A stretch of DNA of 62,323 bases, filler included, from Asterionella formosa (Eukaryota), in the NCBI GenBank assembly GCA_002256025.1. It is 10 parts of 10 records of this genome, joined end to end, with 100 filler letters (N's around TTAATTAATTAA, not from the genome) between each part and the next. Parts side by side here need not be neighbours in the genome. Positions count along the whole stretch, not along the records: positions 56,194 to 62,323 come from NKIB01012811.1; 9 more parts are not named here. One strand, 5' to 3'. Of the stretch, positions 28,089 to 62,323 are shown piece by piece. Positions within the stretch are counted from its first letter, which is position 1; every line of letters begins with the position of its first letter. The notes beneath the pieces were generated by a model, which made no database searches, was not told the origin of the DNA, and saw only the letters and a program-made list of their open reading frames with translations. Both the position numbers and the translations under genes were made by a program.

Positions 28089-28779
28089 NNNNNNNNNNNN
28101 NNNNNNNNNNNNNNNNNNNNNNNNNNNNNNNNNNNNNNNNNNNNNNNNNNNNNNNNNNNNNNNNNNNNNNNNNNNNNNNNNNNNNNNNNNNNNNNNNNNN
28201 NNNNNNNNNNNNNNNNNNNNNNNNNNNNNNNNNNNNNNNNNNNNNNNNNNNNNNNNNNNNNNNNNNNNNNNNNNNNNNNNNNNNNNNNNNNNNNNNNNNN
28301 NNNNNNNNNNNNNNNNNNNNNNNNNNNNNNNNNNNNNNNNNNNNNNNNNNNNNNNNNNNNNNNNNNNNNNNNNNNNNNNNNNNNNNNNNNNNNNNNNNNN
28401 NNNNNNNNNNNNNNNNNNNNNNNNNNNNNNNNNNNNNNNNNNNNNNNNNNNNNNNNNNNNNNNNNNNNNNNNNNNNNNNNNNNNNNNNNNNNNNNNNNNN
28501 NNNNNNNNNNNNNNNNNNNNNNNNNNNNNNNNNNNNNNNNNNNNNNNNNNNNNNNNNNNNNNNNNNNNNNNNNNNNNNNNNNNNNNNNNNNNNNNNNNNN
28601 NNNNNNNNNNNNNNNNNNNNNNNNNNNNNNNNNNNNNNNNNNNNNNNNNNNNNNNNNNNNNNNNNNNNNNNNNNNNNNNNNNNNNNNNNNNNNNNNNNNN
28701 NNNNNNNNNNNNNNNNNNNNNNNNNNNNNNNNNNNNNNNNNNNNNNNNNNNNNNNNNNNNNNNNNNNNNNNNNNNNNNN
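28089..28779. other. Internal scaffold gap (691 N)
   Basis: N run without the TTAATTAATTAA linker. Confidence 0.95.
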
Positions 28780-56211: not shown

Positions 56212-57071
56212 TCAAAACACTTTTGACTTGTTGCTTGACTTGGTCAATGCATCCAACTGGTTCAAGCTCCTTCGTTTTGGAGCAGGATACTTTTCGGTCG
56301 CGACATCTTGTCTCTTGATCTCACGAGCACTCCACCATCCCTTCCCATACCAATGACAAAGCTGGGTGTTTTTTGGAATTTCTTCGAGAGTGATGAACTC
56401 CAATCCTCCCACCTTACCATTTCGGAGGCCAAAGTATTGAAATGTGGATCTGTACACAGCAAACGATGAGATTCGGTCGGGACAGTAATGGTTCCCTACC
56501 TACAAAACACCGAACTTACGCGAATATATAAAAATATATGCAATTATTCTTACCTCATATTCTGTCTCTCGCTGGGGCCTGGACAAGCAGCATACTGTAA
56601 AATATCTCCGGTCCCTTTGGGATTCAAGACTCCGTTATAATTGTCCGTCTTCAAGGTTCTTGTATATGGAATAAGGTTACGACCTGTCTTTCGATTGGGT
56701 GGATAATATGATATGCTACGATCTTCCTTGTTCGAAGTTGGACATTTGCCTCGGTAGCCCCAAAAGACCATGCGATAATCCTTGGGTAACGCCCAGTTGG
56801 CAACTAGAGTCTTTCCCGCAAATGGGTGGGACACGACCTTTACAGCAGCATCACCAGACTTTAAGTGAGCCTCGCAGTATGGAATTGGAATTGGCTCCCC
56901 TTCGCGAGATTCAACCATGGAAAGGCAACGAAAACCGGAACGTTTGTGAGCCCAGCATTGTATGCATTCGTTTGCTCGAGCGCGTCCTTGAGTGCTGATT
57001 CGAGGAATTGACTTTTTCTTAATGGTTCCCTTTTCAGTTCTTACTTGTTTATTTGCAGGGTTTTTACACAT
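56212..57071 (-). CDS. Divergent SET-domain-like protein with an N-terminal Cys/His module; exons 57071-56554 and 56449-56212; start uncertain
   Basis: Intron 56553-56450 (GTAAG...CAG) keeps frame; GKTLVA, LQYAACP, LEFITLEEIPKNTQLCHWYGKGWW resembles the SET C-terminal ELxxxYG motif; C..SG.RC...YCEAH. Confidence 0.65.
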
Positions 57072-57275
57072 GCTTGGATAAAATTAGGAACTAGTGATGC
57101 TGACTGGAGGAAGACTTGTTGTTGAAAGGAATTACAGCATCCAATACATGAAGATGCAATTTGTAGTGTTGTTCTGTGTCTATGCGTTATGATCTTTTTT
57201 TTAAACCAATGCTTGATGTACTCCCCCCATTCATGCATGATGTGCCCGGTGTATCGTAGTTGCAACCAAACTTCT

Positions 57276-60200
57276 TATTCACACCCTGAATTTTAGGTCA
57301 AACCGACACCTAAAAATTGGTCAGTACAAAATGTACACACGAGAATGACTTCTACCTCGGGCAGACCACACCCATCCATACAACCCTAATACAGAAAGCA
57401 CTGATATTATGCTTCACCTCGTGAAATTTCAATATATAGCTAATATAGTACCGGTATGTCTACTTCAATAATTGGATAGCATTTATATGAATTTTTAAGA
57501 TAATTAATTCACCTAAACCTCTTGACCAACTCCATGTTCAAAGGCATTGCTTGTCAGAAATCTGATTGGTACTGAAGAAATGCGGCTTTGCACCAACACG
57601 AACCTTGTTAGGCATGATTCTGAGATAGGCAGGCCACTTTGTGCGCTCTAGATGCCGGCGTCGGTCCTTTGGAGTAAATGTAGGAACTCCCAATGAACTA
57701 GCCACAATATCAAATGCTTTCCTACAATGCAAATCTGACATCTCCTGATGTAGCAACCCTTTTTCATGTGCAGCCAAATCTAACCTCCTCATGAGAAGCA
57801 TGAATTCCTCTAGCCTTCGCCTCCCATCTGTCAAAAAATCAACATCCATGGGCTTCAAAAACTTCATGGCACACTGCCCTGACACTGTATCCTTTGTGTG
57901 CCATAGTTTGTATGCAACAAGGAGGCCGCATTTTAGGAATTTCCAGTTGGGAGGAATAACCCGTCTAATCTTTCCCTTGTGAATCCAAATTTTTTGTTCA
58001 CCCATCAATTCAGTATGATCTGTACCATTGCCAGTAGCTGACCATGGCATATTGTTTGCTGTTGTTGGTATCCTTTGATCTAGCTCCTCAACAAACTTTT
58101 TTCGACTTTCTTCCAAAATGGACTTCATTCTTGTCTCTGATAATGTCCCACCCATGGTATGGTCATCCAACATTTTTTCGACACCTTCTAACACTCCTGG
58201 CTGTATTTCTGAAACAATGGTCTTGATCTGCTCAATTGCAGAAAGCTGGACAACATGAGGCGGAACTCCAGTCAGCTTCATAACACACTTCTGTGCAATG
58301 CTATCATTTTCCCAAGGATACACTACTCTGGCTGACAGAATCCCGCAATTCAATAAATTCTTGTTTCCTGAAAATAGGCGACATTGCAAGTGGTGAATTG
58401 GTGTGGAATTCATTTGCAGCATCAAAATGGTGAAGCATTGATGCTATTCCAAACCGTAGTGTCTTTCTGATGCACACTAAATCCTGTAGTTCTCCAAAAC
58501 ATGCTTTCAACATGGTAGAAACCTTTTGATTCAAATCCATCTGTTTTTTTCTCACAATAGCCACTGCCTCGGGAACACCAACAGTACTATGATAAAAGAA
58601 ATCCGGTGCAGAAGCGCCAAACTTAGCAGATAGTACATTCATACCACTCAAAATTCGACCTACATACTGGTCACCAGCACGCCGCTCATACAGCATATAA
58701 ACATCATGTACACCTCCCAAAGTCCACCCACCCCGGTTATTGACTGAAACACTTGAAGGAGCTGCAGTTGTACCACTAGAAGCATATGTACCTGCACCTT
58801 TCCAAATGGAATGTACACCTAGTATGTCATTAGGTTCATAGCCAAGTTCAAGTAGCTCATCCTTGTGCTTTTCTAGCACACAAAGTAGGATAGCCCCAAA
58901 TCGTTCCTCTTGCTTGGGACCTGGGAATAGCATACCATTCCCATCCTGGAAGAGCTTTGGGAAGCACAACAGGTACTCTGTAACAGCAGTCACACAGCAC
59001 ACATGATAATTGTCAGGGTTTGTGTAAATATGGCGGGGATGCCAGTTCCTTGATCCTGCAGGGTCATTCTTAACATGTGAAAATGAAATTCCAAATGCAT
59101 CAGCCCTCCACATAAGATGCTTCAAGCACAAACAGGTATTTACTCCCCTACACATCAAATTCCAAGTCAATGACATGAAAGCACGACCAAAAATACCCTC
59201 ATGTGACCTCTCCTCAAGTAGCCATATCATCGATTTTTCATAAACCTCGAAAGTAACTTCTTGTTTGCCCATTTCCACAGAACCAAGGCCTTCCTGTGCA
59301 GCCATTGACACAACGCGTACAACTCCTTCCATGTACTTGTCCACATTCTCTGAAAAATCGTCACTTGCCCTGAACTTGTGGCGCTTGAACAGATTATTCA
59401 AGATTGATCGCTTGTTCATATAAACTTTTCCCTTCAAAGGCACACCATTATTCTTCAAATTCGAGCTCAAGTATGTTGTGTAGTGCTTATAGACCATACC
59501 ACTAAAATCAAAGGGTGCAGGACTATTCTCCTTGTCCAACCATTCCCTAATAACAACTCTTGCAGCAGCTTCCCTCTTCTTCTGTGAAATTCCTTGGTCG
59601 TCTGTGATTGCTACATGAATCTGGCCAGATAATATTGGGTTGATCAAACTCATCTGTCTATCCCTTGTTTCCTTGTCAGATTCATTCTTGTGCCCAAGTA
59701 ACAACCACATTATTAGTTTCACAACTTCATTCCGATTATTGTCTCTGGTTGATTGTGCTCTATTTAGCTTTGGACATTCATCAGGTAACATCTTCTTCTT
59801 CGTTTCTTCCACCAAGCGATCATGCTCACTTTGTTTTCTTGTTGTTGTTGTAGTGCCAGTTTCATATCCTACTTGCTGCTCAAACCAATCTCCTCCTCCC
59901 ACAAAATATTCGAAGTCATCCTTGCCTTCAAATGATCTTCCATATTGCATGAAGCATCCAAGACAAGTCAAAAGGCTTGAATTTGAATTCGTCTCTCCGC
60001 AAAGGGGATGTATCGCTCCATCACAGGAAACACATCGGTGGCTGATTGCAGCATGAGGAAATTCGCCACTTTCTTTACGCATCATCTTACAGGCATTGCC
60101 TAGGCAGCATGGAGCGAAGTTGGGCGTAGAGTCCATTCTTTAATCAACAATCTGAAAGCTTTGAAAGAGTAACGATAATTTCTGATCTTATATTTCAATC

Positions 60201-60540
60201 AAAAAATTGAATCATCAGTACTCTATATATACAGAATCATAGCACCTACTAAAGTGCGGCTCATGGTGACTTCATGACACTCCCAGCACCTACGGGAGGC
60301 GATCCATCAACTATTTTACTCTGCGCAAATGTATCGAAAGCAGCGAGTCATTGTTAGGTTTTTCCGCACCTAAAATTCCAAGAACTGAAAAGGAAGTTTA
60401 AGTTGTCTGTAGCCTTGTACCGGGGTTCGTCTGTAGGACGAGAAAATATTCTCAATCAGCCATTTCCTGAATTTTAGGTGCGGAATAACCTAAAATGACC
60501 CTCAGGGGCAGTTAATTTAACCTAAAATTCCCCACCTTCT
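57276..60540 (-). mobile_element. Crypton (tyrosine-recombinase DNA transposon), 3265 bp, bounded by CTTCT direct repeats (57271-57275, 60536-60540)
   Basis: YR ORF; subterminal inverted arms gaattttaggt (57288-57298) and acctaaaattc (60520-60530); empty target site visible at 60762-60780. Confidence 0.88.
57538..60136 (-). pseudogene. Crypton tyrosine recombinase with an N-terminal Cys-rich finger; one ancestral ORF split by a frameshift near 58325
   Basis: WNLMCR (R), HVKND (K), HSIWKG (HxxR with R->W), RGGW, DVY (Y), GDQYVGR; second frame continues TGVPPHV...PPNWKF...YKLWH. Confidence 0.88.
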
Positions 60541-60931
60541 GTGCCCCCATCAAGTGCAAGCTCCGATGGTTATTCGCCTGTTTTAATATACCGGTAGCCG
60601 GGTTCACCAGCAGAGTAGCCGCCCGTGGCTTGTAGTAAGTTGGAAATTTAGGATCAGAAAATATTTGTTTTGCATACATAAACATAGAGTCGTTTTATTC
60701 GATGAAATGCTTTATGTTCTCCCCCCACTCATGCATTATGTGCCCAGTGTATCGTAGTTGTAACCAAACTTCTGTGCCCCTATCAAGCGCAAGCTCCGAT
60801 GGTAATTCTCCTGCTTTAATATAGCCGGGTGCACCAGCAGAGTAGCCGCCAGTGGCTTGTATTATGTTGGAAATTTAGGATCACAAAATATTTGTTTTGC
60901 ATACATATACTTAGAGTCGTTTTATTCGATG
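60536..60931 (+). repeat. ~230-bp tandem duplication of the Crypton target region
   Basis: 60536-60702 matches 60769-60931; the intervening 60705-60773 matches 57207-57275 on the far side of the Crypton. Confidence 0.9.
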
Positions 60932-62323
60932 TTCATTTCGGCATCAGTGAATGTGTATGAATATACCAGTCATCAACAATGAATCATCTCTTAGCAACAC
61001 ATGCATGCCATTTACGCTCAGCCACAACCTTGCACTCGATCACCTCTCTCACCATGAGGAATACCTCCATTTGTCATTGTTTGATCCTCATCATCTAAGC
61101 CTTGCTATATGATCAACCAGCATTGTCTCCTTCCTGATTGGAAGGTTGTGGGAAGAAGAAGTCGAAATCAAAATTGGAAGTGGTTAAGTGAGACCATTGA
61201 TCAGAGTGTCTTGGAAGGGAGGATTAATTGATTTTTTGTGTCGACAATAGAATGCCTTTGTCGATCAAGGATGCATGGATGAAATTTCTGATGCATGTTA
61301 TGGGAGATGCATGATCTTTGTTATTGTGTCTTGGAATAGGAATATGTATCCATTCAAACTTATATTCTGCACTTGAGTGTCTGAAGACACATATATACCA
61401 CTACACTTCTGTTCATGAACTTCTTTGGAGGAGAGAAAAGAAGCTGGATGACTGTATCTCAAACACAATGTATTTCGGTCTTCATACTTTCATACGTTGA
61501 TATACTTTAGCAAAGTGCAAGAAGGTTGACTCAGGCATGCATTGTACTGCTACACCACACGTGTTTTGTAATGGAGCTATATCATCAAACTTAGCTAGTA
61601 CTCTTTCCACTTACTACTGTGTGTTATTGATTATATTCTAGCATGTATTATCTTCCCTAGTTTTGAGTTTCATCATACTTCTAATGGTCCATTCCTCCAC
61701 CTTAGACCAAATGTCCTGTTAATTTCGCTTAGTAGCTAATAGCAAGTCAATTGCTAGTGCTTATGGTCACACCAATGCAAAAAATCGGTAAATACTCAAA
61801 GGAAATAAGTGCCCTCACAGATCCATCGACTCATTCTATTGGTCCAAATGTTTACAATGCTCTAAGTGGTGATGGATCTGTGAGATTACAGCAAGGAACA
61901 ATGAAAAGCGACAGTCGGTTAAGGCCATTATCAAGGTAAAACAACATGTATTTTTGCATCATAATTATTTCAGTAGAAGGGTTAGGGTTATTGTTTGTAC
62001 TAGGTCTGCATGAGCCTGCCCGATATTCTCAAACTTTGCACTTAGCCATTTTATAAAATTATTGCGAACAGAATGGTGTAGGTGAACCTGACCTCGTTTT
62101 ATTTTTTTGCGCATTTTTTGTAGCATCATGTCCCGATTGGAATCTTTGCTCAGGACCCCCTTTTTTCGTTGACCCTTCACTAAACACTGACCAATGAGAC
62201 ATAACACGAAGGATTTGACGCCAGAACAGCGACAATGCATTGTCGATTGCTTGCTTCATGACCTCAAAAGGGAGGCTGATGAGACCGTTGGCATGGATGG
62301 CCAGCTCGCCATAAATCCGGGTG

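Follow-up and report, generated by a model that had tools for sequence, protein, structure and literature searches.

Subterminal half-sites and phased dyads as a putative recombination locus in a Crypton-type element of Asterionella formosa

The element and its recombinase

The window considered here, a stretch of 62,323 nucleotides made up of ten parts of ten records of the Asterionella formosa assembly GCA_002256025.1, carries a multi-copy Crypton-type element of 3260 bp at positions 57276–60535 on the minus strand, within the part that derives from NKIB01012811.1. Its limits were drawn from contigs (Logan) of four public runs, three of DNA and one metatranscriptome, aligned to the window at 85% likeness. 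Contig loose ends are found at 57270 and 60540, before the former in runs X1, X5 and X12 and behind the latter in X5 and X7, and at these points the contigs diverge into mutually different flanks, with an agreement of 0.50–0.58. One X5 contig joins 57270 directly to 60536, skipping 3265 letters, with five letters that fit either side. From the heterogeneous flanks and this five-letter joint it therefore follows that the element comprises 57276–60535 and lies, in many copies at different places, between 5-bp terminal direct repeats, CTTCT, at 57271–57275 (left) and 60536–60540 (right), which would represent the crossover or target core. The joint has the appearance of an empty site, although it may instead derive from an uninterrupted paralogous stretch at 60706–60931 that resembles both element flanks by blastn. 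No second copy of the element was found when blastn was run over all 62,323 nt of the window.

Summed contig depth over the body of the element exceeds that of the left flank several-fold in all four runs, and depth in the end bins, 57182–57463 and 60284–60565, exceeds that of the body several-fold, again in four of four; in X1 the site-bearing end bins reach 542–874, compared with 13–146 in the body. The excess is compatible with short derivatives reduced to the site-bearing ends, but these figures are sums over contigs, not copy numbers, and give only a hint. RNA contigs of X12 also match the element, and these fix neither a transcript start nor transcription itself.

The element holds a single recombinase gene, the product of which is, on structural modelling, a Cre-like tyrosine recombinase. 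In the window this gene takes the form of two overlapping minus-strand ORFs, 58304–60136 (N-terminal piece, 610 aa) and, in another frame, 57538–58425 (C-terminal piece, 295 aa), which are pieces of one ~900-aa protein split by a frameshift. The first piece combines a zinc-finger-like N-terminus with a Cre-like core-binding and catalytic fold, and the second is 63% identical to residues 636–882 of P0001, an 898-aa relative. The nearest relatives are proteins of 875–909 aa from Fragilaria crotonensis and freshwater metagenomes, which point to a freshwater diatom as the probable host. Four letters at 58328, which cause the frameshift, are missing from most contig depth in the public runs; the frameshift is therefore private to the window copy or to a minority of copies. 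This copy also has W at residue 445 in place of the second catalytic Arg (R445W), a column that is conserved in 17 of 19 aligned relatives, the other catalytic columns being R330 (18/19), K356, H442, W471 and Y480 (19/19 each). With both the frameshift and R445W the enzyme of the window copy is dead, and the copy could therefore move only in trans. Other ORFs within 57276–60535 are a few of 60–138 aa on the opposite strand.

The AlphaFold (AF2) model of the recombinase (pLDDT 72.5) has its best fold match in Cre (1pvp_B; E 3.9e-4, prob 1.00, TM 0.51 on the target), with both domains aligned; XerH, Ndc10, lambda Int and Tn1549 Int rank next. Pfam returned a sub-threshold zinc-finger match alone for the two ORF pieces (PF23663, E 0.0011, at the N-terminus), with no GCR1_C domain, reverse transcriptase or DDE transposase in either of them, and no match for the flanking ORF at 56550–57071. 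No meaningful match came from searching PDB sequences with a profile (best E 0.19). The C-terminal region of the recombinase is conserved among relatives; the model of this domain (pLDDT 69.4) has no Foldseek match at E ≤ 0.001, and VIA-align gave generic helical-hairpin matches only, the best with a Z of 7.9 over 78 residues, neither search pointing to a DNA-binding fold.

Gene content, multi-copy behaviour and the direct repeats at its termini identify the element as a Crypton. A tyrosine recombinase with its catalytic residues is found in the family, the window copy being defective (W445, frameshift); the CTTCT repeats fall within the 4–6 bp of terminal direct repeats that correspond to the target core; and long direct repeats are absent from within the element. 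Cryptons are also expected to be free of terminal inverted repeats, and here a short, subterminal one is present, which departs from that expectation without excluding the element from the class.

Motif copies at the ends of the element

The region upstream of the recombinase gene had been singled out in the initial annotation for two inverted copies, each of them a dyad in itself, that enclose a 90-bp segment, with a third dyad at the opposite end of the element and a half-site nearby; all of these features were recovered. A repeat search identified an inverted repeat with 25-nt arms, 60354–60378 and 60469–60493, that are 96% complementary and 90 nt apart, and with blastn the repeat extends to 60347–60378 versus 60499–60469 (93.75% over 32 columns, one mismatch and one gap). 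An inverted repeat of this kind, 25 nt with at most one mismatch and a loop of 20–300 nt, occurs once in the 62,323-nt window and in 0/200 dinucleotide shuffles.

The distal dyad, R1 (60350–60377), has one arm at 60350–60359, with two mismatches to the motif AATTTTAGGT, and another at 60368–60377 that matches it exactly, around the spacer TTTTCCGC; its inner palindrome, TTAGGT-TTTTCCGC-ACCTAA, occupies 60354–60373. The proximal dyad, R2 (60470–60497), reads AATTTTAGGT-GCGGAATA-ACCTAAAATG and includes the palindrome ATTTTAGGT-GCGGAATA-ACCTAAAAT at 60471–60496, with no mismatches between its arms. When the two spacers are compared, 7/8 letters agree in inverted and 0/8 in direct orientation. The 90-nt segment between the dyads, 60379–60468, lies 243–332 nt upstream of the ATG at 60136 (minus strand), in accordance with the placement given in the initial annotation. 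Four letters at 60457 are missing from most contig depth, so that in most copies the segment measures 86 nt.

At the 3' end of the element, dyad L (57289–57317) reads AATTTTAGGT-N9-ACCTAAAAAT, with 10-nt arms and one mismatch. In a shorter form, TTTTAGGT-CAAACCGAC-ACCTAAAA, it spans 57291–57315 and has a 9-nt spacer; its outer arm, 57289–57298, lies 13 nt from the element terminus. At the 5' end, the half-site R3 (60520–60529, minus strand) is 6 nt from the terminus, the half-site sequence over 60520–60530 being ACCTAAAATTC. R3 and the outer arm of L constitute the arms of a 15-nt subterminal inverted repeat, 57288–57302 and 60516–60530, which are 93% complementary and lie 12 and 5 nt from the ends.

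The element thus holds seven copies of a 9–10-nt motif, AATTTTAGGT, the R1 and R2 palindromes among them. Matches to AATTTTAGGT with at most one mismatch are no more numerous in the window than chance would give (8 found, 7.4 expected), but six of the eight, including all four exact ones, fall in 57289–57317 and 60368–60529. By simple arithmetic, the chance of six of eight matches falling within ~190 of 62,323 nt is ~2e-14.

In gene orientation, R3 begins 6 nt from the 5' end, R2 follows 32 nt on (start to start), R1 lies 120 nt further, and the recombinase ATG 214 nt past R1; the R2-to-R1 distance is 116 in most copies, owing to the missing letters at 60457. With the ends joined in a circle or tandem, R3 and L's outer arm would point away from one another on either side of 24 nt in which CTTCT lies, a gap that becomes 28 nt if the motif is taken as the homologous 9-mer.

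Layout and crossover in related elements

A protein-based scan of metagenome contigs yielded 70 loci, mostly with 22–41% protein identity to the window's recombinase. The close relatives L001, L002 and L042, with DNA identities of 97%, 91–93% and 96%, respectively, cover the coding sequence only. Searches for the dyad pattern in viral contigs (2 loci) and genome contigs (48 loci) gave unrelated matches, none of which aligns to the element. Several of the metagenome loci have, 5' of the recombinase gene, a cluster of a family-specific 9-nt word ending in GGAC, whose copies retain this order and spacing. In L055, with the motif TCTTAGGAC, a (−) half-site at 98 and a (+) half-site at 135 are followed by a first dyad at 167/180 and a second at 262/275; in L011, with TTCCTGGAC, the corresponding positions are 216, 253, 285/298 and 379/391. 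L008, with TTTTAGGAC, has a (−) half-site at 88, a (+) half-site at 125 and a dyad at 156/170, and in place of a second dyad it has (+) copies at 271 and 282. L008, L009, L012 and the L039 family match the layout with some degenerate arms.

The layout was tested in 71 sequences, many of which are fragments without the upstream region, so that the denominators understate its frequency; the test was chosen after the pattern had been noticed, and the regular expressions used for display were fitted family by family. A (+) half-site 29–35 nt upstream of a dyad was present in 9/71 sequences compared with 2/355 shuffles, although two of the nine, L044 and L054 (low-complexity, other strand), are probably spurious. 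The full layout, in which a second dyad follows 60–150 nt further, was found in four of the 71 and in none of 355 shuffles. Its spacings are 32/120 in the window, 32/94 in L011, 33/97 in L012 and 32/95 in L055, or 32–33 bp and then 94–97 bp in the relatives. A looser test, in which a dyad arm had to recur at least four times within 300 nt, was passed by 25/71 loci and 14/213 shuffles, and is too unspecific to be used alone.

The motif itself differs among families, as seen from TCTTAGGAC, TTCCTGGAC, TTTTAGGAC, CTCTAGGAC and TCTCCGGAC, and the proteins of the site-bearing families are 28–44% identical, with the exception of L008 and L009, which are 80% identical and have a motif in common. The layout is kept while the motif varies with the protein, as would be expected for sites that are read by the element's own protein. 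The initial annotation had counted a motif not conserved in related Cryptons among the points that would speak against it; what is conserved is the arrangement of half-site, dyad and dyad, with a motif that is particular to each family.

Complete units, recognised by a terminal overlap or a tandem period, are available for seven families. Exact terminal overlaps, of 33 nt in L006, 522 in L009, 120 in L012 and 123 in L055, mark circular or tandem units, and tandem periods of 3245, 3084 and 2260 are seen in L039–41, L014 and L032, respectively. A GGAC-type array is present in four of the seven (L009, L012, L039–41 and L055), whilst L014 has a putative cluster of another word, and L006 and L032 have no array. 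Three tandem junctions of the L039 family have the sequence GTCCAGAGA-GATT-GTTAGACAT-TTTCCGGAC, two other copies are unrelated on the 5' side as far as GATT, and in one the 3' flank that follows GATT is unrelated; the 4-nt core therefore sits between the (−) and (+) half-sites. L011 and L015, nearly the same in sequence from dyad 1 on, diverge halfway through the gap that separates the outward-facing half-sites, a gap of 28 nt in L055, L011 and L008. Judged from such junctions, the crossover is placed between outward-facing half-sites in the window's family and in two more.

In L008, L009 and L011 the half-site gap is itself occupied by an inverted pair, with ~10-nt arms around CAATTAA or CGAATAA (ATTCCGxCTA-CAATTAA-TTxxCCxGAAT), which, from its symmetry, looks like a canonical core site flanked by stronger outer sites. 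The sites keep a constant distance from the crossover, whereas the first in-frame ATG may lie inside the array (L011) or as far as ~1 kb beyond the last dyad (L012). Fixed spacing to the crossover and variable spacing to the ATG therefore favour a role in recombination over one in transcription.

A putative recombination locus and its alternatives

The seven motif copies probably make up the cis-acting recombination locus of the Crypton, composed of putative recombinase-binding core and accessory sites. As a core-plus-accessory organisation would require, at least three motif copies stand at fixed distances from the mapped crossover, beside the recombinase gene. Across the joined ends the order would be dyad L, the 24-nt stretch with CTTCT, R3, R2 (32 bp on), R1 (120 bp further) and the gene. 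Each motif copy would be bound by the element's own recombinase, or by an extra domain of it, and strand exchange for excision and integration would take place at CTTCT, between the two outward-facing half-sites, with R2, R1 and the inner arm of L serving as accessory sites that build a defined synaptic complex. Occupancy of the sites just 5' of the gene could, in addition, damp its transcription. By analogy with lambda attP, the repeated sites could equally well be read by a separate domain. Several points tell against the array model: outward-facing half-sites beside a crossover are not the canonical core geometry of tyrosine recombinases; the inverted agreement of the R1 and R2 spacers exceeds what simple binding sites need; the full layout was met in only 4/71 loci; and the half-site gap of the window's family has no inner symmetry, which is a weakness of the model for this element in particular. 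The suggestion in the initial annotation that the repeats are recombinase binding sites finds support on comparative grounds, in that the layout recurs and the sites bracket the crossover, and its fallback, accessory binding sites, comes near to the present reading.

With so few structural hallmarks, Cryptons are difficult to delimit, and their cis-requirements have stayed obscure. If the proposed locus is real, its half-sites near the ends and its two phased dyads, kept in a fixed layout across recombinases only ~30–40% identical while the motif changes, would constitute the first set of cis-acting sites to be defined for these elements, the annotation of Cryptons and their short derivatives would become easier, and eukaryotic tyrosine-recombinase transposons would share the core-plus-accessory logic of bacterial and phage systems. 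The matched pairs of recombinase and site are directly testable at the bench.

The other proposal of the initial annotation, an invertible switch in which the recombinase flips 60379–60468 between R1 and R2 and so turns its own expression on or off, is not supported and very unlikely. Its appeal lies in the two sites being inverted around a segment a short way upstream of the ATG, with spacers that agree in this orientation; moreover, a true tyrosine-recombinase core can consist of a 9-bp motif arranged as a dyad about a short spacer, as described for IR1–IR2 of Tn4430 in the relevant part of PMC2847244. Contigs and same-family relatives were compared for the orientation of the segment, as had been suggested, and only one orientation was encountered. 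No strand change occurs among the 15 joints listed of 22 from the four runs (hundreds to thousands of contig pieces, 3585 of them from X5), though contigs miss rare variants, and the variants seen are deletions, 60380 to 60461 and 60400 to 60502 (in the latter, 10 different letters are interposed). A subfamily that diverges at 60421 is colinear with the window by eye, the inter-dyad segment has the same orientation in L039, L041, L052 and both L040 copies (one of them cut by a contig end), and the segments of L011 and L015 are colinear. Judged by their spacers, the dyads are direct in L055 (ACAG/GCAG) and L011 (AGCC/TCC), and inverted only in the window and perhaps, weakly, in L012. The R1 and R2 dyad centres are only ~120 bp apart, close to the lower limit for Cre. 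True invertible switches have both orientations present in populations; in fimS, where FimB and FimE act, two inverted recombinase sites likewise surround a short segment upstream of a gene, but the element differs in showing no second orientation in contigs and no conservation of the inverted arrangement in relatives. It is no less improbable that R1 and R2, beyond being docking sites, are competent crossovers at which the segment of 86–90 bp is flipped here and deleted in families with direct dyads; if they were, a self-regulating or self-limiting switch would be built into a eukaryotic transposon.

A different reaction at the dyads also appears unlikely, if less so, namely that they are separate crossover sites that resolve tandem arrays or circle multimers in the manner of the Tn4430 IRS, cer or dif. 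Tandem or circular units are indeed common among the relatives, and in geometry the dyads conform to a canonical core site. Copies, however, leave their flanks at CTTCT or GATT and not within the dyads, the deletions in 60380–60502 do not run from dyad to dyad, and spacers of 3–5 nt in relatives, like spacers that differ within one element, would hinder homologous exchange between dyads. Comparably doubtful is a purely transcriptional function, in which the motif copies would be promoter or 5'-UTR operators for a host factor or for the zinc-finger region of the element, with no part in recombination. Most copies do lie between the 5' end and the ATG, and the weak PF23663 match at the N-terminus could supply such a region, yet one dyad is at the 3' end, terminal half-sites bracket the crossover in three families, and it is the spacing to the crossover, not to the ATG, that is fixed; variation of the motif with the recombinase family would, furthermore, be unexpected of a host-factor site. 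A simple fold-back or recent inverted duplication devoid of sequence-specific function, such as a hairpin that the single-stranded DNA or the transcript would form, is very improbable. As single-stranded DNA, 60340–60505 is predicted to form a long hairpin of −33.8 kcal/mol (z −7.3, matched by 0/200 shuffles), but this follows automatically, because the inverted repeat itself forces the fold. The relatives keep the sites and their spacing without an extended inverted repeat between the dyads, and AATTTTAGGT recurs at the other end of the element and as a lone half-site.

Comparison with known systems

The recombinase resembles Cre and Flp in its Cre-like fold and its R-K-H-R-W-Y residues, and the dyads, with ~10-nt arms and a short asymmetric spacer, are reminiscent of loxP and FRT. 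Each of the latter, however, suffices as a single site and has its crossover within the spacer, whereas the element has seven motif copies in a fixed layout and a mapped crossover outside the dyads. In lambda attP, a short core common to the target is accompanied by repeated sites of high affinity, which lie tens to ~150 bp away from it on each of the two arms, and lambda, like elements of the Tn916/Tn1549 type, integrates from a circular form by means of a heterobivalent integrase. Although the fold matches of the Crypton recombinase model include lambda Int and Tn1549 Int, the Crypton has no recognisable arm-binding domain or sites for a host bending factor, and its host is a eukaryote.

With Cryptons as described so far, the element shares a tyrosine recombinase as its sole gene, direct repeats of 4–6 bp that match the target, and a circular-intermediate model (PMC3212892, PMC9977147 and PMC13465315, in the portions cited). 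The donor/target-core model of Goodwin, with which the element boundaries agree, is given as confirmed for an active Chlamydomonas Crypton, CryptonF-1_cRei, in the cited section of PMC9977147. CryptonS elements, of oomycetes and diatoms, have terminal direct repeats of 5–6 bp, with TATGG termini in most, according to the cited section of PMC3212892; the direct repeats here agree in length, and the termini are CTTCT. A conserved C-terminal region and the absence of a GCR1_C domain are expected of the CryptonS subgroup; both were observed, and the element is at most a possible member. The passages cited describe Cryptons as lacking terminal inverted repeats or structural hallmarks (PMC3212892, PMC13465315), with direct repeats of 4–6 bp as their only one (PMC3212892, PMC13465315, PMC12130899), in contrast to the 15-nt subterminal inverted repeat and the internal dyads at fixed spacing found here. 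The combination of subterminal inverted half-sites with a phased dyad array seems undescribed: a full-text search of the literature returned no account of such arrays in Cryptons, Goodwin et al. 2003 and the supplementary element lists of Kojima and Jurka 2011, which may bear on the question, being outside its scope.

By analogy, the closest worked-out parallel is the IRS of Tn4430. As set out in the cited part of PMC2847244, this site holds four copies of a 9-bp TnpI motif, of which an inverted pair with a 4-bp spacer and a 6-bp stagger serves as the core, and two accessory sites (DR1/DR2), although dispensable, impose the synapse's architecture and direction. Tn4430 belongs to the bacterial Tn3 family and the reaction is cointegrate resolution rather than excision and integration; in place of dyads, its accessory motifs form two direct repeats to one side, and its crossover lies inside the inverted pair, whereas that of the Crypton would fall between outward-facing half-sites. 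Both have a repeated 9-bp motif beside the recombinase gene with further copies at set distances (PMC2847244, same part), and dyads with a 4-bp spacer occur also in L055 and L011.

Insertion site and flanking sequence

The Crypton-type element (57276–60535, minus strand) lies in a target that is present twice in the window. Its left flank (57208–57275) is 91% identical to 60706–60773, and its right flank (60536–60704) is 89% identical to 60769–60931, as judged by sequence comparison within the window. The insertion site is thus duplicated, and since both flanks resemble 60706–60931, the target is also present in uninterrupted form, ~170 bp past the right end of the element. Read on the minus strand, each target copy resembles a coding fragment (…LQLRYTGHIMHEWGE…). 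Two minus-strand ORFs of 81 and 173 aa are found downstream of the element, at 56212–57071, and may be part of a gene or repeat that was interrupted by the Crypton; a Pfam scan of the 173-aa ORF, the one of the two that was scanned, gave no match at E ≤ 0.1.

Beyond the duplicated target, contig depth (summed over contigs, and not a measure of copy number) is raised across 60848–61100, reaching 104–230 in one public sequencing run (X1) vs 17 on the left flank. As several runs also show separate loose contig ends within this region (61061 and 61095), a further repeat family probably abuts there.

Element ends, relatives and recombinase

In all four sequencing runs, summed contig depth at both element ends (57182–57463 and 60284–60565) is several-fold greater than in the element body, a hint that there are many short, non-autonomous derivatives in which just the ends with the sites are retained. 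Reports of non-autonomous Cryptons are rare (PMC3212892).

Among related Crypton loci on metagenome contigs, the presumed crossover core, ATTCCGxCTA-CAATTAA/CGAATAA-TTxxCCxGAAT, lies between the outward-facing outer half-sites and is conserved across families that differ in their outer motif (L008, 88–133; L009, 368–413; L011, 216–261). Many of these related contigs came out of assembly as units of about 2.3–3.5 kb that are either circular or repeated head to tail, with terminal overlaps in L006, L009, L012 and L055, and tandem periods in L014, L032 and L039–L041, including 1.8 units of 3245 bp in L039. Cryptons may thus commonly occur in nature as tandem arrays or free circles.

Recombinases of this family share a C-terminal domain of about 250 aa that is conserved among them and is encoded here at 57538–58425 on the minus strand. 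A structural model of this domain is confident in part (residues 145–280, pLDDT 73–96), and structure comparison of the modelled domain found no clear structural relative.

Elsewhere in the window, 44-nt N runs occur in pairs about every 6243 nt between 6157 and 56193, together with a single 691-nt run at 28089–28779; these look like masking, not biology.
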